Shown: positions 856 through 64,000 of the stretch, one piece after another | Numbering within the stretch: the first letter of the stretch is position 1 | Layout: each line of letters opens with the position of its first letter | Source: Oscillospiraceae bacterium | GTDB lineage: Bacteria; Bacillota; Clostridia; UMGS1810 | Assembly: GCA_015068705.1 (NCBI GenBank) | Contig: SVJZ01000006.1 | Span: 2,851-66,850 of the forward strand | DNA: 64,000 nucleotides | Direction of reading: 5' to 3' | The notes under the pieces: model-generated | Databases searched by the model: none | What the model was told of the DNA's origin: nothing | What the model saw: the letters and a program-made list of their open reading frames with translations, nothing else | Position numbers and translations under genes: made by a program

Positions 856-869
856 TGGGGAGGAACACG

Positions 870-5139: not shown

Positions 5140-5149
5140 GAGGAATATC

Positions 5150-47160: not shown

Positions 47161-48033
47161 TTGGGTGAAGATTTGGCATTTGGTAATGTGCCGCGTTTAA
47201 CCATGGATGAATACGATGGATGGAAAAGCGGGATTTATGTTAAACGCCAGATTGTAAACAGGGTGTTTTCCAATCACTGGCATGATCATTACGAGATTGA
47301 ATATATCACCGAGGGAACCGGCACACATATTTTTAACGGAGCAAAATATCCTATTTATCCCGGCACGCTGCACCTGCTTACCCCAACAGATTTTCATGAG
47401 CTGATTCCGGACGGCGTATTCCACGGTATCAAGATCAATTATCGGGAAAGCGATGTAGACCCCTTTATTTTAAATACCATTGTCGGTCTTTCCACCGGTG
47501 CGCCGGTATATATATCGCAAGAAGAACGACCGTTTTTCGACAATTTGTTTCAGCTGGTGGCACAGGAAACAGAATTGTACAAGCAATCCCCATATTTTGT
47601 GTCATCCCTGCAAAAGCTTGTTGAAATCATTTTGCTCAATATTGTCAACCATTTCAAACATAGCAGCGAAGACTCTGCCGATTTGAAGGGGGACTTTAAG
47701 GCGAATAACGAAAAAATCCAACATATTCTGGTGTATATTCATCAGAACTTCAAAAAATCATTGGATTTAAAAACAGTTGCAGAGGCAGCGCATTATTCCC
47801 CGTCCTATCTGAGCCGGATATTCCATCGTACCATGGGAATTTCCTTTAAGGCATATATCACCAATTTACGGATGAATTTTGCGGCAAATCTGATTTCCAA
47901 TACAGATATGAAAATTACCGATATCGGCTATGAAACGGGATTTAGCACGCTTTCGAATTTTACCAAGGAATTTAAAAGGATTTATCACATGTCCCCATCT
48001 GATTATCGGATGGCAAACAAACAACGCGACTAA
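47161..48033 (+). CDS. AraC-family transcriptional regulator (cupin sensor + HTH) heading the surface glycan locus
   Basis: TTG 47161 lies 8 nt after an AAGGAGGG SD. HTH motifs: LDLKTVAEAAHYSPSYLSRIFHRTMG and IGYETGFSTLSNFTKEFKRIYHMSPSDYR. Confidence 0.85.
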   Translation: MGEDLAFGNVPRLTMDEYDGWKSGIYVKRQIVNRVFSNHWHDHYEIEYITEGTGTHIFNGAKYPIYPGTLHLLTPTDFHELIPDGVFHGIKINYRESDVDPFILNTIVGLSTGAPVYISQEERPFFDNLFQLVAQETELYKQSPYFVSSLQKLVEIILLNIVNHFKHSSEDSADLKGDFKANNEKIQHILVYIHQNFKKSLDLKTVAEAAHYSPSYLSRIFHRTMGISFKAYITNLRMNFAANLISNTDMKITDIGYETGFSTLSNFTKEFKRIYHMSPSDYRMANKQRD

Positions 48034-48047
48034 TATAAAAGACCCAC

Positions 48048-48084
48048 AAAGACGTCAGAATTTTTTGGCGTCTTTTTCTTTATT
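48048..48084 (+). terminator. rho-independent terminator after the AraC gene
   Basis: Stem AAAGACGTC / GGCGTCTTT (one G-U pair) followed by TTCTTTATTT. Confidence 0.7.
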
Positions 48085-48405: not shown

Positions 48406-50124
48406 ATGAAGAAAAGCGTAGGTTTAATGGTAGGGTTGTTGGTGTTGACCATGGTAACGCAAGCATTTGCATTGGATTGTGCAATTAGCTACAATGCGGC
48501 AACAAACGAGGTCAACCTGGTTGGAACAGCAAAAGCCCCGGTTTCTGTGCTGATATTGCCGGAGGATGTTGATCCGTCAACCATCGACGAGGAAAATGCG
48601 GTGGCGGCAGCGCAGTATGAATGGCGCGGCGTAACCGAGTTTGATGAAACCATTTTGTTGGACAAAAACCTGCCCAGCGGTACATACAATGTAACACTCA
48701 AAAGTAACGAACAGTACATGTTAACAACAACGGAAGAAGTCAACGATATACCGGCTCGTATTTATGGTACTATTACCGATAATATCAAATCTGTTTCGGG
48801 TTCCTTGTACCACATCAATATTGATGACGGCGAAGAAATGGTTGCCGATCTCAACACGGTAAAAACAGATGCGGATGCACTGTATGACATGATTGCAACC
48901 GGAAAGACGGGTGATGACAGTACCCCTGCCGAGGATAGAGTTCCGTATACCGAATTGATTGGTGTTACCCCCGAAGGATTTGCACAGTTTGGTGCATATG
49001 TTTCGGAGCAGATGGTGGGCACAAAAGATGGAGAGGATTTTACAGATATACAAGAAGTAATTGATTTAATGAATGAGTACCGAGTGCTTTATATGGCAAT
49101 CAACTCATCCACCCCCTCGGCAGTGATTAGCCAGAATGCAGAGTTCTATACGGCAGATGTTGCCCGTTTTGTAACGGCATTGGATGAACTGTCTGTCGCA
49201 AAATTCGACCTGCTTCTCAAAAATTTCAAGGCGGATGGCAGAAGCCTGTCGGAGGAATTGCCCGAACTTTCCGCACTGGCAACCGTGCAGGGTGCAGACA
49301 GATGGCAGACCATCGAAACGGTGGTAACCGATAGTCATGAGGAAATTGTAAACATCGACTATGATGTAGACAACCGCGACAGAGTATTCCAGCAGATGAT
49401 GGATTATACCTACGAAACCTTCCTTGATATTGAAGATAATTTTGCAAAAGCAAATTCCGAGGTAAACAAAGTGGATTACAAACCGGTAGTTCGCCCCAAC
49501 AAAGGTAATGGCGGCGGAGGCGGTGGAGGAGGAATCGGTGCATTTGAGATTGCCCCCTCCCGTCCCGAACAGCGCTACGAAGAAGTTGATGCAAAATCCT
49601 TCTCGGATGTGCCGGCTGATTTCTGGGGCAAGGATGCCATCAGCCAACTGGCTGCAAAAAATGTCATCTCGGGCTATCCGGACGGCTCTTTCCGTCCCGA
49701 GGGCAATGTAACCCGTGCCGAGTTTGTAAAAATGCTTACCACGGCATTCGGGCTTGCAACTGCGGCAGAAATTCCCTTTGCCGATGTAACCACTTCGGAT
49801 TGGTATTATAACTACATTCGCGCAGCATATGCAAGTGGTATCATCACCGGCGGCACTGATGGCACATTCAATCCCAACGGCGAGATTACCCGTGAGGATG
49901 CATGTGTGATTGTATATCGATATCTGTCCGGTATCGGCGTGCTGGATGCAGCCAAGGCAAGCTTTGCTGATGAGGGAGAATTTGCTTCCTACGCAGTAGA
50001 CGCCATTGCAACTCTTGCAGGAAACGGCATTGTAAACGGAGTGGGGAACAACCGCTTTGACGGCAAGGCAAGCATCAACCGTGCAAGCTGTGCAGTGCTT
50101 ATCTTAAACTGCTTGAATAAGTAA
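48406..50124 (+). CDS. SLH-domain surface protein (paralog of 870-2543)
   Basis: AGGAGG SD. Signal peptide ends in TQAFA. Linker GNGGGGGGGGIG. C-terminal triple SLH (FWGKDAISQLAAKNVISGY, DWYYNYIRAAYASGIITGG, SYAVDAIATLAGNGIVNGV). Confidence 0.88.
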   Translation: MKKSVGLMVGLLVLTMVTQAFALDCAISYNAATNEVNLVGTAKAPVSVLILPEDVDPSTIDEENAVAAAQYEWRGVTEFDETILLDKNLPSGTYNVTLKSNEQYMLTTTEEVNDIPARIYGTITDNIKSVSGSLYHINIDDGEEMVADLNTVKTDADALYDMIATGKTGDDSTPAEDRVPYTELIGVTPEGFAQFGAYVSEQMVGTKDGEDFTDIQEVIDLMNEYRVLYMAINSSTPSAVISQNAEFYTADVARFVTALDELSVAKFDLLLKNFKADGRSLSEELPELSALATVQGADRWQTIETVVTDSHEEIVNIDYDVDNRDRVFQQMMDYTYETFLDIEDNFAKANSEVNKVDYKPVVRPNKGNGGGGGGGGIGAFEIAPSRPEQRYEEVDAKSFSDVPADFWGKDAISQLAAKNVISGYPDGSFRPEGNVTRAEFVKMLTTAFGLATAAEIPFADVTTSDWYYNYIRAAYASGIITGGTDGTFNPNGEITREDACVIVYRYLSGIGVLDAAKASFADEGEFASYAVDAIATLAGNGIVNGVGNNRFDGKASINRASCAVLILNCLNK

Positions 50125-50237: not shown

Positions 50238-53200
50238 ATGGTAATGAAGAAACTGACAAGCATACTGGTTGCAGCACTGATGATCATCACTTGCATGGCA
50301 CCTGTTACAGGCTTTGCGGCAGAGAGCACCGTACTGTTTAGCGAAGGCTTCAACGCTTCGGCTACATACGGCAATGCTCCTTCTGTAATTGCAGTCGATG
50401 GCGGCAGCGGTAACGGCGTTATCGACCTGGGCGAGGAAAATAAGGCGTTTTCCATCGGCTTGGACCACACTGTGGCAAACATAAGCTTTGCCGCATCTCC
50501 TTCATCCGGTGTGGTTTGGTATGGTATGCGTTTTCGTGTCAATGGCACATTGGAAGGCGGCGCAATGTTTCAGCTGATTGATAGCGCCGGCGCAAAGACC
50601 AACCTGATTAACATCTCCAATAATGGTGCATCTCTTTATGACGGCAAATATTTCGGCAAGGTGCAGAAAAACATCTGGTCGGATATGCATGTAAAGATTG
50701 ACTACACAAACAAACTCTATTCGGTGTATGTAAATGGCGAATGTGTGCAGAAAGACTGGAAGATTACCGGCACCGTTCCCACTGCAGCACGTATCGGCTT
50801 TGAGTTTATCAATAACGCAAGTATCGGCTCGGTGGAAATTGACCACATTGTTGCCTACCGCGACAATAAAGTAATGACAAAATATCCCAAACAGGAGTTT
50901 AATCCCGAGGTTGCAGAGGTAGAAGAGGGTAGTGCCGAAAAGGTAAAACGTCTGTATGTGTTTGACGATTTTAACTACCTTGGCGGTCTTGACTGTACTT
51001 ATATAAGTACTGTGCCGGGTAAGGGTGTCATCGGCACACGTAGCCAGAAGGGTATGTCATATTACACCGAGGGTGACCGCATGTATCTGCACATGGAGGT
51101 GGATGCAGGCATTGCCAACGCACCTCACTTTGACGTTGTAATGAAGCGGTTTAATTCCACCCAGTATGTCATTGATATGATGCTTAATATCTTCCAGTTG
51201 GACAGCCGTATCTTCCAGATGGGTCTGCAAAAGGGCTACAATTCCGGCTCCAAATGGCTGATGGCCGCCGAAACAAATGGTGTTATCAGGTGTGGCGGCG
51301 ATGTATTTAATGAACTTACCTACAACCGTTGGACCCGTGTTTCCTTTGCGATAGACGCTACCAAGTCCACTTTTGACGTGTACATTGACGGCGTGCTGGT
51401 GCGCGAGGGCTGCACCATCACCGGAAATGCGCGCGATATCGACCGTATCTCGGTTGACTTCAGTGCAGGCTCGGGTGCTGCCTCTCTGGGTATTGACGCC
51501 CTTGCCATTTACGAGGGCACCGAGTTGATGCCCAGCCTGGAGCAAAAAGATTACACCGGTTATTTTGTAAATAGTTATGAATGGGACGACCAGGAAGTAA
51601 ACGCCTGGATTGGTAATAAGGCAATCTATTGTAATACCAACTCTGCCTTCTATAAGGAGGGCGTGAAGAAGGAGTATGATGGAGAAAACGAAAAATACGG
51701 TTATGTAACCATCGAAGGTACTCCGATGGGTATTGTAAAAACCATGGCAGAGGCATACGGCTTGACCGCTGACTATAATGAAGAAACTCAAATCGTTACT
51801 TTAAGTGACGGCACCACCATGAAGGTAGGGGACAACGTATTCATTAAGGATGGCAAAGAGATTTCTGCCGGCGGAAACATTGAGTTCAAAAACGGCGAGG
51901 TATTTGCACCGTTGCGGCCCTTCTTTGAAAAGATTCATGGTAAGACGACCACCTATGAAAGCACTTGGGAGTTGCTCTTTATCACCGAGGACGGCACTTC
52001 AGTGGATACCACCAATGCCGAAATGATGAAGATGATCATGCACCTGATGATTTTCCGCCGTATGAGCGGTGAAGAGGCACTTGCCACCATTCAGGAACGC
52101 TGGCCTAATCAACAGCATCCTCGTCTGTGTGCAACCGAAGAGGCGGTAGCACAGGTGCGTAAAAACATCGAAACCGACGAAAATGCAAAAAAACTGTACG
52201 AGTATTTGCGTGCGACATGTGACGGTGTGTTGAGCGCACAACCGAATCAGTGGAGAGACCTTGGCAATGGTCGATTAGACATGGTTCGAACCACCGAAGA
52301 TCGTTTGTCCAACCTGGGATATATGTATCACATTTCGGGTGATGAGCGCTATGCAGAGCGTGCAATGGTGGAGATAGACGATATTCTTACGCGACCATAT
52401 TTTGCCGATGCACATCCGCTCAACCGTGCGGCAATTATGGGCGGTCTGTCCCGTTGCTATGATTTGTTTTTCGATCATTTAGGGGAAGAACGCCGTGCAA
52501 AAATCCGCAAGATTGTGAAGGGCTTATGGGAGGATGTTCTCTTTGACGGCTCGGATGCTACTGCGATGCGCGCACACACCTGGATGCGTACCGGAGACAA
52601 CTTTGGTTCGGTACACAACGGAACCTATCTGGAATCTACACTGACCTTTATGGATCATCCCGAAATGCAGGAATATGGCACACTGCTCTTTGAACAGATG
52701 CTCCGCCATCACGAATATGCAACACAGGATTATGCGCCGGACGGCGCATGGCCAGAGGGTGTTGGATACTGGAAATATACCATGCTGGAATGGGCACCTG
52801 CTACCATGAGCTTGCGTAGTGTACTTGGCGACACCATGGGTCGTGAGGACCATCTGGGCCTTAGAAATGCAGGTTACTTCTTGGTAGACGTTACCGGTAT
52901 GGCGCATGCAAACCTGTTCCATGACTCTGGTACCGGAGCCAAGCAGTATTCCAGAAAAGACGTGGTAGAGCAGTCTCATGCTCACTTTGCACTTTCCACA
53001 CTGTATCAGGACCCCAACATCTTAAATGCTTGGATGGGCTTTATCGATAACTTCCTGTATAACAACGAAGGAACCTCACTAATGTGGTATAACCCCAATC
53101 TGCAGGGCGGCGATGATGGAGCTTTGGATCATCGCTACAGAGGTGAGCTGGACATGGTAGCGCTTCGTTCTTCCTGGGAAGACGAAAATGCAATGCTCCT

Positions 53201-54605
53201 TACCGCACATTCCGGTCAGAACTATATGAGTCACTCCCACATTGACGGTGGCACCTATGTAATGGACGCCATGGGATATAGCTGGGTAATTGACGTGGGT
53301 ACCGAGGATTATTCCAATCCATATAGCCCGGTAGAAGGTAATTTCTATGTAACCCGTCCCGAGGCACACAATGTGTACCTCATTAATCCTCGTGCAGGGT
53401 ATCAGGGACAGGATCTGTATGAAAAGAGTGCTACTACCATGTTTGAAACCAGTGACCGTGAGGGCTTTGCGGTTGTCAACATGCAGCCCTATTATAAAGA
53501 GGATGTTATCACTGCGCAGCGTGGATTTAAGATGGCAGATGACCGCCGGCACCTGATTGTTCGGGATGAGATGGTACTGAAGAACGCATCCGAGGTATAC
53601 AGTTTCATCCACACAAAGGCAAATATTGAGATTATCGATAATAATACCGCCATCTTTGAGCAGTTTGGCAAGAAGATGCTGGTAGAGGTATTTACCAACG
53701 GACGTGACCTGACAATCGAGGAGATGGAATGTGAAATCCTGCCGGTTTACAATAAACCCAAGCAGCCTAGAGCGCGTGATATGAGTGAATACCGCAAGCT
53801 GGGTATCAAACTCAATGCGAACGGTTCGCTGAATATCACTGTAAAATACACGCCGCTCTATGAGGATATCACCGAAACAGAGTATGAGGACGAAATGCTT
53901 GCTCTGTGGAAGTGCGCCGAGGGCGAGTTGCAGTTGCCCCGCCTGACCGACGTACTGGTAGACGGCGTTTCGGCAGAGCGCTTTAATCCGCTCAACAGCC
54001 AGGTAACCGTTACCCTGCCGGCAAAAACCACCAAAGTTCCGGTAATTACCGCAACCGCAGATGAAAAGTATAACGTAGAGGTAAGACAAAACGCTTCCGA
54101 TACACTCATGGACGATGTTATCATCAAGGTGAGCGAAAAGGCAAACCCCGACAACGCTTGGTATTACACCGTGCGGTTTGACCTGACTCAGTACGGCATT
54201 GAAAGTCTGGATGGATTAAAACTTGCCAATATCCAGAGCATCATCGAAGAGGATACCGGCGCGGTTATCATGGATCCCCTTACCGACCGCAATTTCGCTA
54301 CCGAGCGTTATGAGAGTTTGGGTGGTTTTGATTATCTGATTGACCTTGGTAGTGTACAGGAACTGGATTCCATCGTTACCGCGTGGGGCTATATAAAAGA
54401 CCAGAAGTACTACTTTGACGTGGCATACTCGGAGGATGGCGAGAATTGGGAGCTCAAGACTTGTCATATTTCAGCCGGTACCGAGGGCTATGAACGGCTC
54501 CATCTGGACGAGGGTGCACATGCTCGTTACATCCGCATTTCGCCCAATGGTCGTATTGGCGGAATGGTTTCGCGCCTCAACGAGGTTGCTATCGTAGTAA
54601 AATAA
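50238..54605 (+). CDS. secreted 1455-aa multidomain putative polysaccharide lyase (2 LamG-like + Cu-amine-oxidase-N-like + heparinase II/III-like core + cadherin-like + discoidin domain)
   Basis: Signal peptide ends in GFAAES. LamG signatures: WSDMHVKIDYTNKLYSVYVNGE and WTRVSFAIDATKSTFDVYIDGV. Stalk-like domain GLTADYNEETQIVTLSDGTTMKVGDNVFIKDGKE. Lyase N-toroid motifs QHPRLCATEE and YHISGDERYAERA. Beta-sandwich motif HSHIDGGTYVMDAMGYSWVIDVG. C-terminal motifs VLVDGVSAERFNP and HARYIRISPNG. Confidence 0.85.
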   Translation: MVMKKLTSILVAALMIITCMAPVTGFAAESTVLFSEGFNASATYGNAPSVIAVDGGSGNGVIDLGEENKAFSIGLDHTVANISFAASPSSGVVWYGMRFRVNGTLEGGAMFQLIDSAGAKTNLINISNNGASLYDGKYFGKVQKNIWSDMHVKIDYTNKLYSVYVNGECVQKDWKITGTVPTAARIGFEFINNASIGSVEIDHIVAYRDNKVMTKYPKQEFNPEVAEVEEGSAEKVKRLYVFDDFNYLGGLDCTYISTVPGKGVIGTRSQKGMSYYTEGDRMYLHMEVDAGIANAPHFDVVMKRFNSTQYVIDMMLNIFQLDSRIFQMGLQKGYNSGSKWLMAAETNGVIRCGGDVFNELTYNRWTRVSFAIDATKSTFDVYIDGVLVREGCTITGNARDIDRISVDFSAGSGAASLGIDALAIYEGTELMPSLEQKDYTGYFVNSYEWDDQEVNAWIGNKAIYCNTNSAFYKEGVKKEYDGENEKYGYVTIEGTPMGIVKTMAEAYGLTADYNEETQIVTLSDGTTMKVGDNVFIKDGKEISAGGNIEFKNGEVFAPLRPFFEKIHGKTTTYESTWELLFITEDGTSVDTTNAEMMKMIMHLMIFRRMSGEEALATIQERWPNQQHPRLCATEEAVAQVRKNIETDENAKKLYEYLRATCDGVLSAQPNQWRDLGNGRLDMVRTTEDRLSNLGYMYHISGDERYAERAMVEIDDILTRPYFADAHPLNRAAIMGGLSRCYDLFFDHLGEERRAKIRKIVKGLWEDVLFDGSDATAMRAHTWMRTGDNFGSVHNGTYLESTLTFMDHPEMQEYGTLLFEQMLRHHEYATQDYAPDGAWPEGVGYWKYTMLEWAPATMSLRSVLGDTMGREDHLGLRNAGYFLVDVTGMAHANLFHDSGTGAKQYSRKDVVEQSHAHFALSTLYQDPNILNAWMGFIDNFLYNNEGTSLMWYNPNLQGGDDGALDHRYRGELDMVALRSSWEDENAMLLTAHSGQNYMSHSHIDGGTYVMDAMGYSWVIDVGTEDYSNPYSPVEGNFYVTRPEAHNVYLINPRAGYQGQDLYEKSATTMFETSDREGFAVVNMQPYYKEDVITAQRGFKMADDRRHLIVRDEMVLKNASEVYSFIHTKANIEIIDNNTAIFEQFGKKMLVEVFTNGRDLTIEEMECEILPVYNKPKQPRARDMSEYRKLGIKLNANGSLNITVKYTPLYEDITETEYEDEMLALWKCAEGELQLPRLTDVLVDGVSAERFNPLNSQVTVTLPAKTTKVPVITATADEKYNVEVRQNASDTLMDDVIIKVSEKANPDNAWYYTVRFDLTQYGIESLDGLKLANIQSIIEEDTGAVIMDPLTDRNFATERYESLGGFDYLIDLGSVQELDSIVTAWGYIKDQKYYFDVAYSEDGENWELKTCHISAGTEGYERLHLDEGAHARYIRISPNGRIGGMVSRLNEVAIVVK

Positions 54606-54683: not shown

Positions 54684-57173
54684 ATGAAGAAATTTGTTGC
54701 AATTTTGGTTGCGGCAATTATGCTGGTATCGCTTGTGCCGACTTCGTTTGCGGCACCGGCAACCGACTATTATGCGGATATGATTTGTACTTTTACCGGC
54801 AACAAGTTGTACAATAGTGTCGGGGCATACACCCAGTATGAGATGGTACAAAATGTCAATCGCACCGAGGATTTTTGTACCGGATTTATTGCGGCTGGCG
54901 ATTTGTCTGCGCGAAAAAATGCAGATGACACAATGATGGTAAACCAGGTTTATTCGGATACCAAAAGCAACTCCAACTGGTTTGGGGGAATTTTGAGAAG
55001 CGTACCGCTTACTTATTCAGCCGGCGAAAAGGCATACATGAGAGCACAGTGGTACATTCCAAGTACCAATACCTATGGTGATTCTCTTGTAAATTACAAT
55101 GACGAACTTGTTGTTCGCATGACCGCAGCGGTAGAGGGCATAACGGAAACGAACGTAATTGGTTTTGCTCGCACCGGAACCACCGGCGGAGAAATTCGTT
55201 TCCGTAATGACGCAGGATTGGTCGCCGACCAGACCTGGGCATACGACACATGGTATACCATAGAGGCGGTTGTCACTTTTGGTAATCCTGCAAAACTTTC
55301 GGTATATGTAGATGGCCAGCCCCTTACCTTTACTGACAAAGCGATTGCAAATTCGGTGGATGTTTCGTTAGGCGCAGCCGGGACAAAAATTACCGAGCAT
55401 CGCCCCATTTATATGATTACTAAATGGAAGATGAACCCCACACTGTCCAGACAGGTATTTAGTGACAACTGGGCTTATGAATCCTATGAGGCAGACGAGC
55501 CTGTATCCCTCTGGACTCCGCCGGTGTATAACCCCATTTCCTTTGATGGGTTTACCAACGGCAGCAAACTTGATATCGAAACCTTTACCCAAGCAACTGT
55601 GACGGTTGGAAGGGAAGAGTGCACCGAGGTGAGCCTCTATATTGATGGCGAGTCGCTGGGCACCTTGACCGAGGCGCCTTATACCTTTAACATTCCTTCG
55701 AGTATAGAGTTGGGTAATGCTACCATCAAAGCGATCGCAAAAACAGAAACCGAGACCTTTGAACGTAGTGTAAATATCATACTCACCGAGATTTATGCCA
55801 GAAAAGCCATGGACCAGAACATGGATGCTTACGGCACATTTACCGATGTGGCAAACGGTGGATGGTACAGCCCTAGTTCACGTTTCTCGCTTTCCGGACT
55901 TGTGCCGAACGGATGGTTTATGAACCCAGAAGTGGTGCAGGATAAGGCGAAAAAGAGCTTTGGCAAGGCAGTTAAATTTGGCTGCAATCCCGAATCGGGA
56001 GAAAAATATATTGCACAGAGCGATTATAGTTACGATTACATTGATTTTGGATATACAGGGTTCAATGCTACCGGAGGCAGTATTTCAGGATATACCGCAG
56101 ACCTGAATTTCCAGATGTACATGGATAATGGTATGCTTAATACAAACAAAACTGATGCGTTTACGCTGACTACGGGGCAGGAGTTGTTCCGTTGGGATCA
56201 CACCGAGCAGAAACTCAAGTGGAATGTTAAGGGTGATCCGGTTTATACGCCGGTAAAATATCAATATTGGCAAAACTATGCGGTGGAACTTGACATGTCT
56301 GGCACTACGACAAAAATGTCTCTTTCCATTGATGGCGAGAAGATTTTTGAAGACAGAGAACTGGCGTCTATCATTTCGAATTTCAATATCATCAAATGGC
56401 ATTATGCCCCCAATCCTGTAACAGGTAATTTTGTGGCAATAGACGAGGTTTTGCTCATGCACTATACGCCCCGTCCGGGCTTTGGCGAAGCAACCTTCTA
56501 TCGTGGTGAAACCGAGAATATCGATTTGGACAATATTTCTTCCTTGACTGATACCATTACCATCAACATGGGCAAGGATTTGATGCCCAACATGCTTAAT
56601 GAGTATGTTAAGTTTTACGAAAACGGCAAGGAGCTTACCTTTACCGATGACGATGGTGTAATCAATAAAACCTCCGTTTTGCTCTACAACGGTTTACTGT
56701 ATCTGGTGCCTCCCTGTCCGCTTTTAAGCGACACCGAATACTCGGTTTCTCTGGACAAAAATGCACTCTTTGCAGACGGTGTCAAGATTGGTTATGACCA
56801 GACCTTTACCTTTAAAACTGCAAAAGCAGATTTGGACGTGGTGGATGTTACCTATTACAAAAACGGCACTGCTGTTGAAGACCTCGACGCCGTAACCTTT
56901 GCGGCAGGGGATAAGATTAAGGCAGAGATTACCGTTTGCAACGCCAACATTTTGGACGAGGATGTATATGTGATGCTCCTCGGCTATAACGGCAAGCTCC
57001 TCACCGCATCCGATATCACGCTGGCAACTGCAGTTGCCGAGAAAGCGGACAATGTATTTGAAACCGCTGAAATTACAATTACCGACCCCGTTGCATTTTC
57101 TGCATCGGCAGCAGTATGGAATGGTGACTTCCTTCCGATTGCGAACGCAACCATCGCGTCGGGGAATCAATAA
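54684..57173 (+). CDS. secreted 829-aa LamG-like / Ig-like repeat protein; no recognisable catalytic domain
   Basis: Signal peptide ends in TSFAAP. LamG signatures: WYTIEAVVTFGNPAKLSVYVDGQP and WQNYAVELDMSGTTTKMSLSIDGEK. Ig-like module VSLYIDGESLGTLTEAPYTFNI. SbsA/Big_5-like module (TITINMG..YSVSLDKNALFADG..FTFKT). Confidence 0.8.
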   Translation: MKKFVAILVAAIMLVSLVPTSFAAPATDYYADMICTFTGNKLYNSVGAYTQYEMVQNVNRTEDFCTGFIAAGDLSARKNADDTMMVNQVYSDTKSNSNWFGGILRSVPLTYSAGEKAYMRAQWYIPSTNTYGDSLVNYNDELVVRMTAAVEGITETNVIGFARTGTTGGEIRFRNDAGLVADQTWAYDTWYTIEAVVTFGNPAKLSVYVDGQPLTFTDKAIANSVDVSLGAAGTKITEHRPIYMITKWKMNPTLSRQVFSDNWAYESYEADEPVSLWTPPVYNPISFDGFTNGSKLDIETFTQATVTVGREECTEVSLYIDGESLGTLTEAPYTFNIPSSIELGNATIKAIAKTETETFERSVNIILTEIYARKAMDQNMDAYGTFTDVANGGWYSPSSRFSLSGLVPNGWFMNPEVVQDKAKKSFGKAVKFGCNPESGEKYIAQSDYSYDYIDFGYTGFNATGGSISGYTADLNFQMYMDNGMLNTNKTDAFTLTTGQELFRWDHTEQKLKWNVKGDPVYTPVKYQYWQNYAVELDMSGTTTKMSLSIDGEKIFEDRELASIISNFNIIKWHYAPNPVTGNFVAIDEVLLMHYTPRPGFGEATFYRGETENIDLDNISSLTDTITINMGKDLMPNMLNEYVKFYENGKELTFTDDDGVINKTSVLLYNGLLYLVPPCPLLSDTEYSVSLDKNALFADGVKIGYDQTFTFKTAKADLDVVDVTYYKNGTAVEDLDAVTFAAGDKIKAEITVCNANILDEDVYVMLLGYNGKLLTASDITLATAVAEKADNVFETAEITITDPVAFSASAAVWNGDFLPIANATIASGNQ

Positions 57174-57201
57174 AAATTTTTAAGAAAAGGAGAGAAGAAA
57201 C

Positions 57202-58836
57202 ATGAGAAAAAAAGCAAAGCAACTTGTTGCACTGGCGCTGGCAGGCATGATGTTACTGTTGTGCGGCTGCGGCGGTGGCGGTACTACGGTAAGCTCCACC
57301 GAGTATGACTTCGAGGTTACCATGGCACCCGGTTACCCCATCGACAATACCCAGGAAATCGAGTGGTGGGTACCCATCAATGTTGGCGTTACCACCAAAT
57401 ATGGTAACCTGACCGACACACCGTTTGCGGCAATGCTCAAAGAAAACACCGGTGCAAACATCAAATTCATCCATCCGCCTACGGGTCAGGAGGCTTCCCA
57501 GTTTAATATCGTGGTATCCTCGGGTCAACTCCCCGATATCATGAGCTATAGCTGGGGCAATTACGCAAACGGCGGTTCTGCCGGTGCGGTGCGTGACAAC
57601 CTGATTCTTCCCATCAACAAGATTTTGGAAAAGGGTGGAGCACCTGCACTCAAAGCACTGCTTGACAGCAACCCGGTATGGAAAGACAGCGTATATACCG
57701 ACGAAGGTTGGCTCCCCGGTTTCCCGAGTGTTGGTGCATTGAGCCAGGTAGTTTATTCGGGACCCATGATTCGTAAAGACCTTCTGGATAAAGCAGGTCT
57801 TGGCATCCCCGAAACCATCGCAGAAATCGAAACTGCACTGTATGCGTTCAAAGAGCAGGGCATCAAAATCCCGCTCGAGGTTGAGCTTGGCAAACACATG
57901 GTTGCCGGTAACGCAGTGGTAGGCGGTTTCGGTATCGGCGCATCCTACTATGTAGACAACGGCAAAGTAAAATACGGTCCCGCACAGCCGGAATTCAAAG
58001 AGTTCCTCGCTACCATGAACAAGTGGTTCAATGACGGCTTGTACGACAGAGAATTCTCCACCTTGCAAGGTTCGGGTCGTATGACCTCTGAATTGTTGGC
58101 AGGTAATATCGGTCTGGCGTTCGGTGCAAACGGCGGTAACTGGGGTAAATATCTCCCTGCATTGGAAGAAACCCGTCCCGACGTGAAATTTGTTACCATG
58201 CCGTTCCCGACCACCGAGAAGGGCAAAAAACCCGAATTCGGTCACATGGAAAACCGCGCAGGCGGTGCATACACTGCCATCACCACCGGTTGTGACAATA
58301 TCGAACTGGCTGCAAAACTTCTCGACTATGCTTACACCGAAGAAGGTCATTTGGCTACCAACTACGGTAAAAAAGGTCGCGACTGGGAGTATGATGCAGA
58401 TGGTATTGTAAGATTTACCGATGCATTCACCAACCAGAATTCCGAAATGAATGGCGGTCAGTCTGTATCCGACATGATGGGTCAGCACACTGCAAGCGGC
58501 AGCGTAGCATTTGGTCGTGTGCAGGACGAGGGAATCCTGAACGTACTGTTCTCTCGTGAGGACCAGAAGGAAAACGTTCGTATCTGGACTCAGACCAACA
58601 TGGCAGAACACCAGTTCCCGAATGTGCAGTATACCACCGAGGAAGCACAGGAAATCGCTTCTCTCAAAACTGCAATCGAAACCCACATGCATGAGATGAT
58701 GTATAAGTTCATCGCAGGTACCGAGTCCCTGGATAAATGGGATACCTACCTTGCAAACTACGAAACCATCGGTCTTTCCCGTGCATTGGAAATCATGCAG
58801 GCTGCATACGACAGATATGTCGCACGTACGAAATAA
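57202..58836 (+). CDS. lipoprotein, ABC-transporter extracellular solute-binding protein (family 1, large LplA/LipO-like type)
   Basis: Lipobox MMLLLCGCGGGG. 544 aa with typical SBP features (IKFIHPP, PDIMSY, NKWFNDGLYDREF). No permease or ATPase genes are adjacent. Confidence 0.85.
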   Translation: MRKKAKQLVALALAGMMLLLCGCGGGGTTVSSTEYDFEVTMAPGYPIDNTQEIEWWVPINVGVTTKYGNLTDTPFAAMLKENTGANIKFIHPPTGQEASQFNIVVSSGQLPDIMSYSWGNYANGGSAGAVRDNLILPINKILEKGGAPALKALLDSNPVWKDSVYTDEGWLPGFPSVGALSQVVYSGPMIRKDLLDKAGLGIPETIAEIETALYAFKEQGIKIPLEVELGKHMVAGNAVVGGFGIGASYYVDNGKVKYGPAQPEFKEFLATMNKWFNDGLYDREFSTLQGSGRMTSELLAGNIGLAFGANGGNWGKYLPALEETRPDVKFVTMPFPTTEKGKKPEFGHMENRAGGAYTAITTGCDNIELAAKLLDYAYTEEGHLATNYGKKGRDWEYDADGIVRFTDAFTNQNSEMNGGQSVSDMMGQHTASGSVAFGRVQDEGILNVLFSREDQKENVRIWTQTNMAEHQFPNVQYTTEEAQEIASLKTAIETHMHEMMYKFIAGTESLDKWDTYLANYETIGLSRALEIMQAAYDRYVARTK

Positions 58837-58855
58837 TGTCAGCTATTTGACTTGT

Positions 58856-58937
58856 GGGGAATGCCCAATGTGGCTTGCCGCAGGAACTCCCCAAGGAGTA
58901 ACAGGGCATTCTCCATGGAATTTCGCCGATGGGCGAA
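58856..58937 (+). other. structured intercistronic RNA element (long-range 11-bp stem plus a second hairpin)
   Basis: GGGGAATGCCC (58856-58866) pairs with GGGCATTCTCC (58904-58914), including one G-U pair. An alternative pairing is TGGGGA with TCCCCA (58888-58893). A second hairpin is TTCGCC-GATG-GGCGAA (58922-58937). No U-tract. Confidence 0.45.
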
Positions 58938-58994
58938 CTCTTGCAACATAGTAGTTTCAAAAAATCACTTTAATCCGAAAGGAAGGATTTTGTA

Positions 58995-61900
58995 ATGAAA
59001 CGTTTGATTAGTTTGTTGGTAACACTCGCTATGCTCGCCGGTATGTGCGTAAGCGTTGGCGCGGCATTACCTGCGACAACCGAGTATGCGCCTGTTGAAT
59101 CTCCCGGTGCAGAACTAAAAACTCCGTTTTCACATTATGTGGCAAATGCATATGAAAACGAATTTGTACCCGGAAAAGGTCTTGCCGGCAAGGAACAGGA
59201 TTTGGTCTACAAGATTACCACCACCAAGGGTCGCTCGGATGCGCAACTGAGATTAACAGATGCTGCTCTGGCTGCACATACCACCTACGAGGATGGCGAA
59301 AAGGTGCACATGACCACCGAGATCATGATTCCGTCCGGAACAGAGTTTTACTACCTCTCAAGCCCCGCTATAAACGTAGAGGTTTTGACTGGCGAAAAGG
59401 GCGGAGAGTTGACGGCAAACGGTATTGGTGTAAAGAACAAGGGCGCAAAATCACGTACGACTGCCTCCAATCTGATTTCAGGTCACCAAAAACAGTTGGT
59501 CGTATTTAACACTACAAACAAGCACTTTGAATTGTTTGGCAGAGGTGTTTATACCGATACATCTTGGGAATATGACCAGTGGTATCGCTTTGATATCGTA
59601 CTCACCATGGGCAGCAATCCGCGTGCATCCATTTATGTGGATGGAGAGCCGATGAGAATTAACGTAGATTACGGCAATGGTGTAGGATACCATCACAATG
59701 ATTCGGATGCAACCTTCGATGGAAGCAGAACCACCTCGGAGGATGTAAAGATTGGTTACTATGACTCTTCTTGGAATTATTTTGACACCGGTATTTGGGG
59801 TGTAAAAGGCTTTTGTCCGGTAGTTACTGTTATGGGTCCCACGCAGGGAGCAGAGGATTTCAACACAATATATGCAGACAATGTAAGCTACAAGGTACTT
59901 GCAAAGGGTGTTGAGGCAAATATCCCCGAGGCACTCGGTATTGCCGGTTATGCAGACGGCGCAACGGTTGATCCGTCTCTCCTCAATGAGGTTACTGTAA
60001 ATCCGCCCTCCTGGTCGGCACACAAGGTTTCCAAGGTTACATTGTCGGTAGACGGCGCAACTGCACAGGAGGATACCGAGGCGCCGTATACTTTTGATTT
60101 GTCCAATCTTGAACGTGGTGTGCGTCATATCACGTTGACAGCATATGATTCTCAAGATTTGATAATCAAACAGAGAGTGCAGACCATGGTGGTTGCAGGT
60201 AACGAAAAACGCATCTATTTAGATGAAAACTTTAATGAATTTGCAAATACCAACGCACTTCTTTCCGGAAAATTTTACGGCAGATCTACCAGAGTAGAAA
60301 ATCTTGATGGCACTACCAGAAACATTACGTTGGAGTCGGTTACGGATTCTACCGATGTGACGCATGAGAAGGCAGTAAAGATTTTCTCAAATGGCGCAGA
60401 CGTTGACTTCAAATGGGGCGCAAACCCCAATAGTGCCGACTCTGTAGCCGGCTGGCCTTCGATGAAGCAAGGCTCTACAGGTCTTATGAAGGTAGAGTAT
60501 GATGTATATCTGTCGGATATGACAAACGTGAGCAAATTGTATGTTAGCCTCAACAACAATGGAGCTAACTATGTGATTTGGGATGCTGCCACCCAAAAAT
60601 TCACCACCTTCGATCAGGGCGGTTGGGCAGGTATCAACACGTCTGCAAGCTTTGACCCCGTGGTTGGCAAGTGGCACAAATGGCAGTGGGAAATCGATCA
60701 CTTCAAGGGCAAGGCATCCTTGTGGGTAGATGGTCAGCTCGTGTTGGACAGAGGCAATATTCATTCTGCCACAGCAGGACTTGGTGATGGTGTTGGCTTT
60801 ACCTTTAATGTTGCTGAAGGCACCGGTGCCTTCATGGCAGTGGACAATATGAAAGTGTCCAGCGAAACCGCACCCGCTACCATCGAAAAGGTAATGAAGA
60901 GCGTGAATAGCGGTACCCTTTACAGCACCATGGATTGGGCAACCCAGATTTATCCGAACGAAGGCTTTATTGGAAAGAATGGAGATGCTGTGACCTTACC
61001 CGCCGGCGCAACCGCAAGCGGTGTAAAAGGTGCGGTAGTATATGGAGAAGATGGCGAAACACCGCTCAATGCGAATTTTGGAGAGAGTCTGGTGGTAGAA
61101 TTCAGTGACCAGGATACGGTTGGTGCATCTTCCCAGATCATGATTCCCATTGCAATTGGTGTAGGTCAGTATAATGATACCTCTCCGCATTTCACCAATA
61201 CAGTAGTAGAATTTGATATGTATCGTTCCAATACCAATCATGGTGATTTTGCTATGGCTGTTGCAACCAACGTTGCTTTGAAAGTGGCTGCCGGCACATC
61301 TCGTATCAAGGTTAATCCACAGGGCTATTACGATTCGTATACTGATATGGCAGTCGGACAGTGGCAACATCATCGGTTAGAGTTTGATTATAGCGGTTCG
61401 TTTGCAGGTCCTTTGAAATATTATGTGGACGGTAAGCTGGTTTATCACGGATCCAGCGGGTATAACTTCACGCATGAAACAAGTCGCCAGGGTCGGTTGA
61501 GATTTATGTTCAATGGTGCAAAAGATGAAACAACTGGCAAATTTAAACCGTGTAAATTTGCTATTGACAATGTGAAGGTAAATTATACTCCCATCGTACC
61601 CTATATCCATGGTGTTGACTTTGGAACAGGCAATGGTTCGGGCAATCTGGTAAAAGCAGGTACCATGACTCCGGTGGTAAATATTACCGGTCACGGTCTG
61701 AATTTTACTAACCTGGCAACCCTTCTTACCGTAACCGACGAAAAAGGAAATCCGGCAACTATGGGTACTCCGGTAGGAACGTCTAACTATGGACAAATGG
61801 GTGCTACCATTTCCCTCACAGATTTGGTGTTGGAGCCCAACAAAACCTATACCATCAAATTGGCGGCAGGTTTGCCCTACGATGGTGGTCGTGCTATGAA

Positions 61901-62405
61901 AACACATGAACCCATGAGCTACACCTTTAAAACAGTGGCAGAACTGCCCACTGTTACACCGGTACCCGGCGACGGCGTTGCAGGTGATATCACAGTAACG
62001 GGTGTTCGTATGAATTCGTATGGTCCGTATATGATGGGTGACTATATGGTAGAAGCATACGCAGGTGGCGAGATTTCAAACAACAGACGGTTGCGTGCAG
62101 ATGTGTTGGTAAGCAATGCATCGGAAGAGACTCAGACCTTCCGTGCAATCATTGCAACCTATTCGGATGGTAAACTGACTAATGTTTCTCTGGGCGAGCC
62201 CTGCGTGGTAAATCCCTTGGATAAAAACGTTCTCGTTTCCAGTGGTGAGGTTACCGTAATCAGAACAGAGAATGAGGATGAAGAAGCGCTCGACCAATTC
62301 GTTGACGAATTTACCGCAAAAGCATTCCTGGTAAATGACATGGCTACCTTTACTCCCATCTCTTATTCGTACGACATTTTTGGTAATATTGCAAGTGTAG
62401 AGTAA
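58995..62405 (+). CDS. secreted 1136-aa LamG-like / Ig-like repeat protein (paralog of 54684-57173); no recognisable catalytic domain
   Basis: Signal peptide ends in SVGAAL. Three LamG signatures: WYRFDIVLTMGSNPRASIYVDGEP, WHKWQWEIDHFKGKASLWVDGQL, WQHHRLEFDYSGSFAGPLKYYVDGKL. Ig-like module VTLSVDGATAQEDTEAPYTFDL. Big_5-like module ending YTFKT. Confidence 0.8.
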   Translation: MKRLISLLVTLAMLAGMCVSVGAALPATTEYAPVESPGAELKTPFSHYVANAYENEFVPGKGLAGKEQDLVYKITTTKGRSDAQLRLTDAALAAHTTYEDGEKVHMTTEIMIPSGTEFYYLSSPAINVEVLTGEKGGELTANGIGVKNKGAKSRTTASNLISGHQKQLVVFNTTNKHFELFGRGVYTDTSWEYDQWYRFDIVLTMGSNPRASIYVDGEPMRINVDYGNGVGYHHNDSDATFDGSRTTSEDVKIGYYDSSWNYFDTGIWGVKGFCPVVTVMGPTQGAEDFNTIYADNVSYKVLAKGVEANIPEALGIAGYADGATVDPSLLNEVTVNPPSWSAHKVSKVTLSVDGATAQEDTEAPYTFDLSNLERGVRHITLTAYDSQDLIIKQRVQTMVVAGNEKRIYLDENFNEFANTNALLSGKFYGRSTRVENLDGTTRNITLESVTDSTDVTHEKAVKIFSNGADVDFKWGANPNSADSVAGWPSMKQGSTGLMKVEYDVYLSDMTNVSKLYVSLNNNGANYVIWDAATQKFTTFDQGGWAGINTSASFDPVVGKWHKWQWEIDHFKGKASLWVDGQLVLDRGNIHSATAGLGDGVGFTFNVAEGTGAFMAVDNMKVSSETAPATIEKVMKSVNSGTLYSTMDWATQIYPNEGFIGKNGDAVTLPAGATASGVKGAVVYGEDGETPLNANFGESLVVEFSDQDTVGASSQIMIPIAIGVGQYNDTSPHFTNTVVEFDMYRSNTNHGDFAMAVATNVALKVAAGTSRIKVNPQGYYDSYTDMAVGQWQHHRLEFDYSGSFAGPLKYYVDGKLVYHGSSGYNFTHETSRQGRLRFMFNGAKDETTGKFKPCKFAIDNVKVNYTPIVPYIHGVDFGTGNGSGNLVKAGTMTPVVNITGHGLNFTNLATLLTVTDEKGNPATMGTPVGTSNYGQMGATISLTDLVLEPNKTYTIKLAAGLPYDGGRAMKTHEPMSYTFKTVAELPTVTPVPGDGVAGDITVTGVRMNSYGPYMMGDYMVEAYAGGEISNNRRLRADVLVSNASEETQTFRAIIATYSDGKLTNVSLGEPCVVNPLDKNVLVSSGEVTVIRTENEDEEALDQFVDEFTAKAFLVNDMATFTPISYSYDIFGNIASVE

Positions 62406-62420
62406 TTTCATTCCTGTTTG

Positions 62421-62489: not shown

Positions 62490-64000
62490 ATGAATTGGAA
62501 AAAAATCAAAAATTTCATAATGCTTGGTTTGTTGTTTGCGTGTGTAATCGTATTGCCCGCATATGCACGGGTTTATCTGGAAGACTTTGAAAAGAGCACC
62601 ATGTTTCGCCCCGGCTATGATTATGTAGGAGGGGGCTATATTAACGGAACCTATCTTTGTCCCCATTCTGCTTCTACCATCCATGTGCAAGATGGTGCGC
62701 TTTACTATGATTTCAGTGCTGAAGAAAAGGATGGAAACTGGAAGAACTCCATTGCTTTTCAAAAGTATATTTCCATCGATCAAAATTCCTATGTGGATTT
62801 TACCTTTACCCGCGATTCGATTGATAACACGGGCGTATATCTGTGTTTGGACAACTGGGACAGCACCGGCGGAGACAGATCTATTACCCCGTTTCATCTA
62901 AAGGGAGATACCATCACACTTGGCTATAGTGATAATGGGGGCGGTGAAACCATTACCTATACCGGATTGACTGGGCATGTAGCAGCGTATGCTGAGAATT
63001 TACCCACTGGTGGATGTCGTGTTACCGTATGGCTCAATGGTGAACAGGTTTATAGCTATGTGAATCCTTATTATACCATCACCGCAAAACAGAATCAGAT
63101 TCAAACACAGTTTGTTGCAATGGCAAAGATGGATGTAGGGGATACACTACCTACAATTACCATTGATAATGTAAAAATCCTGCAGGATGAGGGAATGCCC
63201 ACCGAGGCAGTTTATGCCGGAGACCCCGAACTGCAATTTGACTACGAAAACGGCGGAATGTTTTTCATGAGTGAAAATACATTTCCTTTCCATAGAGTAA
63301 AAAGTGTAAGACAAATCGCAAATTTCAGCCATCAGGTGCAGACTGTTGAAAATGTACTGGCACAGTATGGCGATGCAGATAGATATAAAATACAGAAAGA
63401 AACCCTGCAACCGGGCGAGGTGTTGGTTGCAGAACTACTCGACAATGCCGCAGACCTGGATGGCGTAAAGGATGTAAAATCCTTTGTTTGGGATAAAATG
63501 ACCAATCTGACACCCCTGGTGCAAGGATTTGGCGTGGAAGAATCCATTGCAAAGGCAGACCGTCCCGAGGTGCTGGCACAAAAGCTGATAAGAGTAGGGG
63601 ATACCCACCCCCGTATTCTCACCACCGCAGCAGAGCTTGCCAAGGTAGAGCAATACAAAGAGGATGAAACCTTTGCCGATATGTACACCTCGTTGGTGGA
63701 TTGGAGAAACACCCAGAACAGTGGCTCGTATATGACGGCCGGCATTCCCAACCACGGGAGTGGCACAGGTTCTATCTGCGACATGATTTATGATCGTGCA
63801 ACCGTGTGGGGTTATCTCTATCAGACCACAGGCGACGAGCAATATGCAGCAGACCTCATGCGAGACATGGTGAAGGTTGCAGAATATGATAACTGGTATG
63901 ACGAAGTAAACTATGGCGGAAACGGACGGTTTTTATATACCGCTCACATCGCCGCTGCACTTGCCATTGGTTATGATATGACCTATGACTATTTGAGTAA
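62490..64000 (+). CDS. 5' part of a secreted LamG-like + heparinase II/III-like protein; continues beyond the window (absent from the supplied ORF track)
   Basis: ATG 62490 follows a CAGGTGA SD. I translated 503 codons by hand with no stop up to nt 64000. Signal peptide MNWKKIKNFIMLGLLFACVIVLPAYA. LamG signature CRVTVWLNGEQV. Lyase N-domain motifs GDTHPRILTTAAELAKV and YQTTGDEQYAADLMRDM, parallel to those in the 1455-aa protein. Confidence 0.85.
   Translation, partial: MNWKKIKNFIMLGLLFACVIVLPAYARVYLEDFEKSTMFRPGYDYVGGGYINGTYLCPHSASTIHVQDGALYYDFSAEEKDGNWKNSIAFQKYISIDQNSYVDFTFTRDSIDNTGVYLCLDNWDSTGGDRSITPFHLKGDTITLGYSDNGGGETITYTGLTGHVAAYAENLPTGGCRVTVWLNGEQVYSYVNPYYTITAKQNQIQTQFVAMAKMDVGDTLPTITIDNVKILQDEGMPTEAVYAGDPELQFDYENGGMFFMSENTFPFHRVKSVRQIANFSHQVQTVENVLAQYGDADRYKIQKETLQPGEVLVAELLDNAADLDGVKDVKSFVWDKMTNLTPLVQGFGVEESIAKADRPEVLAQKLIRVGDTHPRILTTAAELAKVEQYKEDETFADMYTSLVDWRNTQNSGSYMTAGIPNHGSGTGSICDMIYDRATVWGYLYQTTGDEQYAADLMRDMVKVAEYDNWYDEVNYGGNGRFLYTAHIAAALAIGYDMTYDYLS

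Follow-up and report, generated by a model that had tools for sequence, protein, structure and literature searches.

Dedicated surface glycan-binding proteins (SGBPs) are well described in Bacteroidota, and glycan capture in Gram-positive gut bacteria is usually ascribed to the carbohydrate-binding modules (CBMs) of enzymes or to the binding proteins of ABC transporters. The SusE/F-type SGBPs of Bacteroidota polysaccharide utilization loci (PULs), such as SGBP-B for mixed-linkage glucan (PDB 6E57), are built from non-catalytic tandem beta-sandwich and Ig modules, are encoded beside enzymes and a transporter, and show low sequence conservation. The Gram-positive PULs (gpPULs) described in Roseburia and Eubacterium rectale carry their CBMs within enzymes, their definition (enzyme, transporter and regulator) includes neither dedicated multi-module non-catalytic proteins nor SLH proteins, and the pan-genome of these organisms contains one polysaccharide lyase only (PMC5320581). 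Sas6 of the Ruminococcus bromii amylosome is described as a secreted, non-catalytic protein with two starch-specific binding modules (bioRxiv 10.1101/2022.11.20.514607). Here we report on two proteins, A (829 aa) and B (1136 aa), of an uncultured gut-type Clostridia bacterium, encoded among the genes of two PL35-like lyases in a stretch of 64,000 nucleotides (the window; positions 2851-66850 of contig C34, from a genome assembly of 1.77 Mb in 36 contigs, 93% complete with 0.33% contamination). Families A and B are rare and undescribed.

Our preferred reading, to which we give a probability of roughly 55%, is that in a gpPUL-type cassette with two PL35-like lyases A and B serve polymer capture or specificity without being catalytic themselves; it is supported by their all-beta fold resembling LG and lectin domains, the lack of any catalytic family match, strict synteny, the sharing of modules with one of the lyases (lyase 2), and the pattern of residue conservation. 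The cassette in the window runs, entirely on the plus strand, from a gene for an AraC-family regulator through those for an SLH protein, lyase 1, A, an ABC binding protein and B to lyase 2. The architecture of A and B fits that of SGBP-like, non-catalytic tandem beta modules that would bind the substrate of the locus. In contrast to SusE/F-type SGBPs, however, A and B lack sequence homology to them, have signal peptidase I (SPase-I) signal peptides instead of lipoprotein signals, and use LamG/concanavalin A (ConA)-type binding modules, and the locus belongs to a Gram-positive-type envelope with SLH proteins and has an ABC transporter and no SusC/D-like gene. The surface glycan-binding role proposed in the initial annotation is retained as the best fit, supported indirectly by synteny, divergence, the small number of invariant charged residues, a dispensable LamG3 module and the appendage of lyase 2. 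A and B are neither SusE/F homologues nor lipoproteins. Sas6 is similar in being a secreted, non-catalytic Clostridia gut protein working beside separately encoded enzymes, and it binds glycans, as A and B are predicted to do; it combines CBM26 and CBM74 within an amylosome complex, whereas A and B carry LamG-type modules and neither of these CBMs, have no similarity to Sas6 in sequence, show no cohesin or dockerin match in Pfam searches that also covered the other family members, and probably act on an acidic substrate. The genes and modules of A and B are as follows.

54684-57173, plus strand: protein A, 829 aa, whole gene (open reading frame (ORF), signal peptide, all-beta AF2 model)
54831-55487, plus strand: A LamG1, residues 50-268 (AF2 beta-sandwich; sub-threshold TS_C match)
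55536-55787, plus strand: A Ig, residues 285-368, Big_7-like, holding EAPYTF (Big_7 E 3.5e-4; PDB 9kvu and 3pdd, E 7e-4)
55788-56474, plus strand: A LamG2, residues 369-597 (AF2 pLDDT about 85-95; 40 of 229 residues invariant, rich in Trp and Tyr)
56475-56825, plus strand: A Big5-like module, residues 598-714, ending in TFKT (AF2 beta module)
56826-57170, plus strand: A C-terminal beta-sandwich, residues 715-829 (AF2 model; without Pfam match)
58995-62405, plus strand: protein B, 1136 aa, whole gene (ORF, all-beta AF2 model, Foldseek matches to LG and lectin domains)
59064-59903, plus strand: B LamG1, residues 24-303 (AF2; conserved K103, H105, E109 and ATFDG loop)
59934-60197, plus strand: B Ig, residues 314-401, Big_7-like, holding EAPYTF (Big_7 E 1.4e-3)
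60198-60869, plus strand: B LamG2, residues 402-625 (AF2; 11 of 224 residues invariant, 2 of them charged)
60870-61592, plus strand: B LamG3, residues 626-866 (Laminin_G_3 E 6.5e-4, below threshold)
61593-61940, plus strand: B Big5-like module, residues 867-982, ending in TFKT (Big_5 E 0.03)
61941-62402, plus strand: B C-terminal beta-sandwich, residues 983-1136 (AF2 model)

Both proteins open with Sec-type signal peptides, read from the sequence as MKKFVAILVAAIMLVSLVPTSFA/A in A and MKRLISLLVTLAMLAGMCVSVGA/A in B, the slash marking cleavage. A lipoprotein reading of B was rejected, as AGMC is no lipobox and VGA/A is a normal SPase-I site, and in A and B neither Pfam searches nor reading of the sequence found SLH repeats, LPXTG motifs or hydrophobic helices at the C-terminus. 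The layout of A is signal-LamG1-Ig-LamG2-Big5-Cterm and that of B is signal-LamG1-Ig-LamG2-LamG3-Big5-Cterm, with module borders read from the strand pattern of AF2 models that were computed on an 11-row alignment and are all-beta, with a mean pLDDT of 76 for A and 69 for B. Whole-chain Foldseek comparison of the B model with the PDB gives as leading matches V. cholerae sialidase, laminin LG tandems, neurexin LNS domains, Gas6 LG pairs, galectins and the jelly-roll protein TtX122B (probability about 1.0), together with receptor-binding fragments of clostridial neurotoxins. The V. cholerae sialidase bears two lectin wings, and the N-terminal half of the neurotoxin receptor-binding fragment is lectin-like. 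For the A model the whole-chain matches comprise multi-Ig chains, S-layer proteins, an adhesin, the GH43 enzyme AbnA, sialidases and the Bacteroides SGBP-B 6E57. The all-beta models fit the two-sheet beta-sandwich of LamG/ConA lectin folds, that of B matches solved LG or lectin domains (whole-chain, with low TM-scores), and the Foldseek results fix the predicted fold class of A and B, not their family. TtX122B (8Q2A; E 1.2e-5, target TM 0.39-0.40) is the best single-domain match to the B model, although the match is weak, with an rmsd above 7 A. This beta-jelly roll bears a conserved patch on its inner sheet, and no function can be transferred from it to B because neither activity nor binding was shown for X122 (PMC10916295).

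No LamG module of A or B reaches the Pfam gathering score for LamG, the best being B LamG3 with 20.3 bits against the Laminin_G_3 cut-off of 27.6, and the other LamG modules give below-threshold matches to TS_C, GH131_N, Polysacc_lyase and Sialidase-like_CBM of the ConA clan in per-module Pfam searches. The Laminin_G_3 cut-off is reached by the remote relatives P0039 and P0098 and narrowly missed by P0088, and these three remote relatives of LamG2, together with P0149, combine Laminin_G_3 with Big_5 and/or Big_7-type Ig modules. Big_7 (PF17957) scores 21.6 and 19.7 bits in the window proteins, under the cut-off of 24.1, and is matched by 7 of 11 family members (best E 1.1e-10); Big_5 is matched by three of the 11 and exceeds its threshold in remote relatives. 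Searches of PDB profiles with full-length A and B matched the Ig module alone, to Ig and Fn3-like structures at E 7e-4, and Pfam and NCBIfam hold no model for family A, family B or their C-terminal module. Across Pfam, NCBIfam and PDB profile searches no catalytic family was found in A or B, with nothing above threshold in Pfam or NCBIfam.

A and B align with each other in BLASTP at 23% identity over 666 columns (E 1e-18) and are, judged by their sequences, distant paralogues. Profile-profile comparison of the module alignments with hhalign pairs A-LamG1 with B-LamG1 (E 7e-21), A-LamG2 with B-LamG2 (E 4e-17), B-LamG2 with B-LamG3 (E 1.2e-12), A-Ig with B-Ig (E 9e-13), A-Cterm with B-Cterm (E 3.5e-12) and the two N-terminal modules of lyase 1, LamGa and LamGb, with each other (E 5e-10); A-Big5 and B-Big5 show a weak likeness (E 5.7e-4). 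The LamG1 and LamG2 types are barely related (hhalign probability 36%), and on these comparisons the modules fall into at least three classes with a common fold, namely the LamG1 type, the LamG2/LamG3 type and the N-terminal pair of lyase 1. The LamG label of the modules in the 1455-aa lyase 1 and in the ORF at 62490 (lyase 2) derives solely from sub-threshold Pfam matches and profile comparisons.

The initial annotation had described an expanded family of LamG-like modules in two paralogous proteins, with at least eight jelly-roll signatures across four neighbouring genes. On re-examination the observation is confirmed. Its ORFs are as claimed (50238-54605, 54684-57173, 58995-62405, and one leaving the window from a likely ATG at 62490), and the paralogy that it saw between the 829-aa and 1136-aa proteins is borne out by the BLASTP and hhalign values above. 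The signature count is recovered as the motif is relaxed: a strict regular expression finds five, a loosened form is needed to arrive at two, two and three in the 1455-aa, 829-aa and 1136-aa proteins, and the eighth (VWLNG, in the 62490 ORF) is found through the core motif; the motif alone is not specific because the loosened form also matches the Ig module of B. Among the modules said to be common to A and B, the EAPYTF-containing Ig module and the C-terminal module stand, whereas the Big5 module ending in TFKT shows the weak likeness given above. A common fold is upheld as well, but a single expanded family is untenable because the LamG1 and LamG2 types are barely related and at least three module classes are present. 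The PL35-like nature of the flanking giants, the threefold presence of the cassette and the permeases that accompany the binding protein elsewhere had escaped that first description.

By tblastn, the whole cassette occurs three times in the genome of the bacterium: on C34 (window position 48406 to the window end), at C21:1-18910 together with the start of C22, and at C16:92373-110297. The 5' part of the C21 copy, made up of the SLH gene and the 67 initial codons of lyase 1, lies where C22 begins. The three cassettes make up about 3% of the genome and share 28-70% identity between copies; an origin from strain variants or contamination is ruled out by this degree of paralogue identity and by the 0.33% contamination of the assembly. 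The paralogues of A are 42% (C21) and 37% (C16) identical to it, and those of B 33% and 30%. On contig C22 we also observed a cassette remnant (C22:29293-33701, minus strand, in L004), which encodes a 599-aa SLH protein, a 519-aa N-terminal piece of lyase 1 and, directly following, a 312-aa N-terminal piece of the binding protein, and which goes back to a deletion, to recombination or to a chimeric assembly.

Outside this genome, the order SLH protein, lyase 1, A, binding protein, B, lyase 2, permease, permease seen on C16 is also found in G060, a genome of another genus, and two metagenome-assembled genomes (MAGs), named 'Oscillospiraceae bacterium' and 'Clostridia bacterium', show the order AraC, GH2, SLH protein, lyase 1, A, B, lyase 2, GH130. 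Pieces of the same gene order lie on Logan contigs, and the order is kept in every context recovered for true members of families A and B, at least eight loci. Of the 67 species genomes of the Genome Taxonomy Database (GTDB) family, which is at the same time the entire taxonomic order, the same four contain both A and B, the cassette being present once in 3 of the 66 others. In a sample of 399 genomes of the class, family A was found in at least one, that of the bacterium itself; this is a floor, as no more than two candidates were scored for each genome. The B profile is matched below 1e-30 by only 12 of 1.84 billion representative proteins, and most weaker matches touch the Ig module alone; word-based homologue searches returned three relatives for B and one for A. 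The A alignment, searched as two back-translated patterns against 185,579 species genomes, gave no match, a failure of the patterns and not a true absence, because a search with the lyase alignment found two MAG loci containing A and B. A metagenome scan with the B alignment gave one 1-kb fragment only.

More distant proteins vary the same module set. The remote relative P0039 has the layout LamG-Big5-Ig-Ig-LamG-Big5-Cterm, and its locus (L025:1-12670), a comparable yet distinct cassette, encodes in order two permeases, an SLH protein, an 885-aa protein without Pfam matches, a 1458-aa heparinase-type lyase with an F5/8-type-C domain, and P0039. Variants of family A with a multiplied Ig module were observed as well, in P0017 (L031:649-3696) and P0058; P0017 has four Ig-like repeats, each ending in EAPY[LV]FE, where the window protein has one.

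The components of the cassette differ markedly in their rates of divergence. Identity between cassettes, leaving out the near-identical pair L010/L011, is 63-72% for the binding protein, 44-67% for lyase 1, 46-59% for the SLH protein, 38-57% for lyase 2, 34-55% for A and 28-37% for B, so that the binding protein is the most conserved component and A and B diverge fastest. Across five cassettes, 26-28% of positions in the PL35 cores are invariant, and 6-8% of all positions are invariant and charged; the corresponding values are 11-19% and 1-3.5% for the modules of A, 5% and 0.9% for B-LamG2, and 1% and 0% for B-LamG3. The LamG2 of A is the module of that protein with the most invariant residues (17%, 40/229), including the aromatic residues W394, Y395, W411, Y479, W504, W513, W529, Y532 and W572, and in B the ATFDG loop of LamG1 is conserved. 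The residues specific to A-LamG2 are lost in B-LamG2 and in remoter relatives, where generic LamG features alone survive (VTD, a Y-D-x-Y strand, W-Q/H, L-x-I/V-D-G and A-I/V-D-N/E), and B-LamG2 and B-LamG3 are almost without invariant polar residues. A family alignment inspected for conserved acidic or Tyr/His clusters, as had been proposed, thus shows a modest polar set in A-LamG2 and the LamG1 type and few invariant charged residues elsewhere. The conserved residues of A-LamG2 and LamG1 fit candidate ligand-binding surfaces.

Judged by the alignments, the LamG3 module of B is dispensable. The C16 row of alignment A1 lacks it, its gap fraction is 0.43-0.45 across the family alignments, and the profile match to the shorter B proteins (889 aa in G060, 857 aa for P0011 and 938 aa for P0013) is split in two and leaves the module out. 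A related module is found on lyase 2, whose long forms on C21 (L001:14744-18910), C16 (L002:3374-7423, minus strand) and in G060 (L022:13665-17717) end in a LamG of the B-LamG2 type (E 1.7e-33) followed by a B-type Big5 module (E 4.7e-31). The short forms of lyase 2 in the window, L010 and L007 have no such LamG-Big5 tail, and there B carries LamG3. Among six cassette types, a sample too small for statistics, the extra LamG resides in B only (C34, L010/L011 and L007), in lyase 2 only (C16 and G060) or in both (C21) and is never absent. A LamG that moves between a stand-alone protein and the tail of an enzyme behaves like a carbohydrate-binding or helper module, and fusion to enzymes is common among carbohydrate-binding modules.

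The remaining genes of the window cassette are as follows.

47161-48033, plus strand: AraC-family regulator (Pfam HTH_18, HTH_AraC and AraC_binding)
48406-50124, plus strand: SLH protein, 572 aa, candidate wall anchor (three C-terminal SLH repeats, E 4e-39)
50238-54605, plus strand: lyase 1, 1455 aa (Pfam and PDB profile search)
57202-58836, plus strand: ABC solute-binding lipoprotein, 544 aa (SBP_bac_1, E 8e-20)
62490-64000, plus strand, continuing to contig position 68330: lyase 2, about 996 aa (complete ORF taken from the contig)

For the neighbouring enzymes, as opposed to A and B themselves, the nearest described relatives are the PL35 glycosaminoglycan lyases GAGase II (8KHV) and GAGase VII (8KHW) and the chondroitinase 9O3Q. 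Lyase 1 comprises two N-terminal LamG-like modules, a Cu_amine_oxidN1-like module, a PL35-like core at residues 614-1151 and a C-terminal F5/8-type-C (CBM32-like) domain; its core matches 8KHV (3.5e-47), 9O3Q (7e-45) and 8KHW (3e-43) in the PDB, and its C-terminus matches CBM32 modules. Residues N788, Y844, H999, H1001 and D1003 of lyase 1 align with N192, Y246, H401, H403 and D405 of GAGase II, in which Asn192 is the neutralizer, Tyr246 and His401 form a pair, and His403 and Asp405 are Mn ligands (PMC12088678). All five are invariant in the four aligned paralogues and orthologues, so that lyase 1, the enzyme to which this residue check applies, keeps the catalytic Asn, Tyr and His together with two residues (His and Asp) of the Mn site. 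Lyase 2 consists of an N-terminal LamG-like module and a PL35-like core (Pfam Hepar_II_III_C and DUF4962), with PL35 matches in the PDB from 6.5e-30 to 3.5e-23, among them 8KHW (6.5e-30) and 9O3Q (2.7e-28). The mechanically called ORF of lyase 2 starts at a TTG at 62418, and its homologues begin at a Met matching the ATG at 62490 (MNWKKIKNF...), which is followed by a signal peptide. Unlike the solved PL35 enzymes, with which they share the core at about 25% identity (estimated by eye), these lyases are 1000-1455 residues long, carry extra LamG-like, CuAO-N1-like, CBM32-like and Big5 modules, and occur in Clostridia. Judged by sequence, lyases 1 and 2 are credible PL35-like enzymes, and neither was found to have a wall anchor.

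Known PL35 substrates are hyaluronan, chondroitin sulfate, heparan sulfate and, for a part of these enzymes, alginate (PMC12088678, PMC11262172). Related cassettes encode additional enzymes: on C21 a tandem GH130 pair lies between lyase 1 and A (L001:4278-6640), and in L010 and L011 a GH130 gene follows lyase 2 and a GH2 gene lies upstream, with an AGE-type 2-epimerase also present in L011 (L010:18557-19735; L010:1313-3766; L011:2-1177). The GH130, GH2 and AGE-type epimerase genes are a hint, at the level of gene content, of a mannose-containing component in the substrate.

The window locus fits the gpPUL definition of enzyme, transporter and regulator (PMC5320581), with PL35-like lyases, a solute-binding protein (accompanied by permeases in C16 and G060) and an AraC regulator. 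The idea that the binding protein is an 'orphan' was ruled out by the ABC permease pair found directly after lyase 2 in C16 (L002:1126-3051, minus strand) and G060 (L022:17735-19668); permeases are missing beside it in the window because the contig stops 206 bp past the end of lyase 2. The AraC gene adjoins the cassette in L010 too. A pattern scan detected a single strong terminator-like hairpin with a 12-bp stem at 48048-48075, directly 3' of the AraC gene, and, as pattern-level evidence, no terminator-like site on the plus strand between the cassette genes up to the window end; the intergenic gaps of the window cassette are 28-158 bp. The SLH protein shares 46-59% identity with its positional counterparts in L010, L011 and G060, and the other cassettes of the genome are adjoined by paralogues of its N-terminal part. 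A second glycan locus was observed at the start of the window (1-7330), consisting of the C-terminal end, an F5/8-type-C domain, of a heparinase II/III-like protein of 1234 aa, two SLH proteins (855-2543 and 2536-5139) with N-terminal parts unlike that of the cassette SLH protein, and a GH36 alpha-galactosidase (5108-7330).

Should A and B be polymer-capture or specificity proteins, the cassette could work as follows. It would probably form a single transcription unit with its promoter 3' of the AraC gene, as suggested by the pattern scans, and A and B, exported by the Sec pathway as their signal peptides predict, would remain at the wall. Their LamG/ConA-type modules may bind a polymer containing uronic acid, with the Trp and Tyr residues of A-LamG2 and the Lys-His/Tyr-x-Glu/Gln strand of LamG1 as candidate surfaces, and the Ig, Big5 and C-terminal modules could be spacers or docking parts. 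Lyases 1 and 2 would then cut the bound polymer, and the products would enter through the binding protein and permeases. Because their divergence far outpaces that of the binding protein and the lyase cores, A and B are likely to be the specificity determinants among the three cassettes. The contrast with the slowly diverging binding protein suggests, from sequence comparison, that the three cassettes import similar oligosaccharides and recognize different polymers.

Several observations weigh against assigning A and B to polymer capture. The fold matches come from whole-chain Foldseek comparisons with low TM-scores, in which multi-domain beta proteins dominate and single modules are not resolved, and TtX122B, the best single-domain match to the B model, belongs to the Cip1/PL20-like jelly-roll group (PMC10916295). 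The invariant residues Y371, Y395, N461, Y479, Y521, Q530, Y532, H593 and R597 of A-LamG2 and the conserved Lys-His/Tyr-x-Glu/Gln row on one strand of the LamG1 type would suit a catalytic site as well as a binding site. The remote relative P0027 sits among housekeeping genes. Finally, it is purely by inference that we have the co-encoded SLH protein probably holding A and B at the wall, a tethering proposed because A, B and the lyases have no anchor of their own.

These points feed the alternatives to differing degrees. That A-LamG2 or the LamG1 type is a new concanavalin-fold lyase or hydrolase, for example with an endo-activity complementing the two toroid-type PL35-like enzymes, we consider improbable. 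There is a parallel in alginate and heparin systems, where PL7 or PL13 jelly-roll lyases complement PL15, PL17 and PL21 enzymes, and the idea draws on weak matches of B-LamG2 and B-LamG3 to Polysacc_lyase (PF14099, which includes the PL20 type) and of A-LamG2 to GH131_N, on the TtX122B match, on the 17% of A-LamG2 positions that are invariant, Tyr, Gln, His and Arg among them, and on the conserved Lys-His-x-Glu strand of LamG1. However, the Polysacc_lyase match reaches 22.6 bits against a cut-off of 29.9 and the GH131_N match 16.3 bits against 23.1, each in one of 11 family members; the top 50 Foldseek matches contain no catalytic jelly-roll structure; the conserved polar residues of A-LamG2 are lost in B-LamG2 and in remoter relatives; invariant polar residues are all but absent from B-LamG2 and from the dispensable B-LamG3; and A and B are the least conserved proteins of a cassette that already holds two credible enzymes, as PL35 homology and the conserved lyase 1 residues indicate. 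The initial annotation, which recognized only binding-type folds and no catalytic domain in A and B, is confirmed on that score by the all-beta AF2 models, the LG and lectin matches of B and the lack of catalytic families in the searches of Pfam, NCBIfam and PDB profiles; none of the modules is a known GH or PL domain, and the novel activity within a concanavalin-like fold that it had offered as an alternative finds no support. An extended version, in which A-LamG2 or the LamG1 type founds a new lyase or hydrolase family feeding the PL35-like enzymes and the SLH protein, lyases, A and B form a wall-tethered machine docked through the Big5-Cterm tail, we hold to be about as improbable.

A role of A and B as scaffold or S-layer-associated proteins, which would organize the anchor-less lyases at the wall, for example by docking of the Big5-Cterm tail to the SLH protein, with little or no glycan binding, is unlikely in our estimation but receives more weight. 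A, B and both lyases have no wall anchor and an SLH-only protein is conserved in every cassette, the Big5 and C-terminal tail is common to A, B and many otherwise different non-catalytic beta-module proteins (P0027 carries it outside any lyase locus), and the Foldseek matches of A extend to S-layer proteins and multi-Ig chains. Yet LamG/ConA modules of this kind typically bind glycans, the fusion of a LamG2-type module to lyase 2 accords better with a substrate-directed role, cohesin, dockerin and SLH signatures were not found in A or B, and the fast divergence of A and B beside a slowly diverging SLH protein is unexpected for a tight docking pair. Nor are A and B generic S-layer proteins next to unrelated genes, the outcome that the initial annotation had named as contrary to its proposal; what is found instead is cassette synteny. 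The occurrence of P0027 outside any glycan locus could also suggest generic secreted, adhesin-like proteins lying by chance between lyase genes, but the gene order kept at the loci of true A and B members, the perfect co-occurrence of A and B across the 67 genomes and the modules common to A, B and lyase 2 exclude chance adjacency for practical purposes.

The practical value of these findings is modest pending the substrate. If A and B recognize the polymer, they would constitute a Gram-positive counterpart of SGBPs for acidic glycans and new LamG-type CBM families, and the three paralogous cassettes in one genome would provide a simple system for the diversification of specificity.

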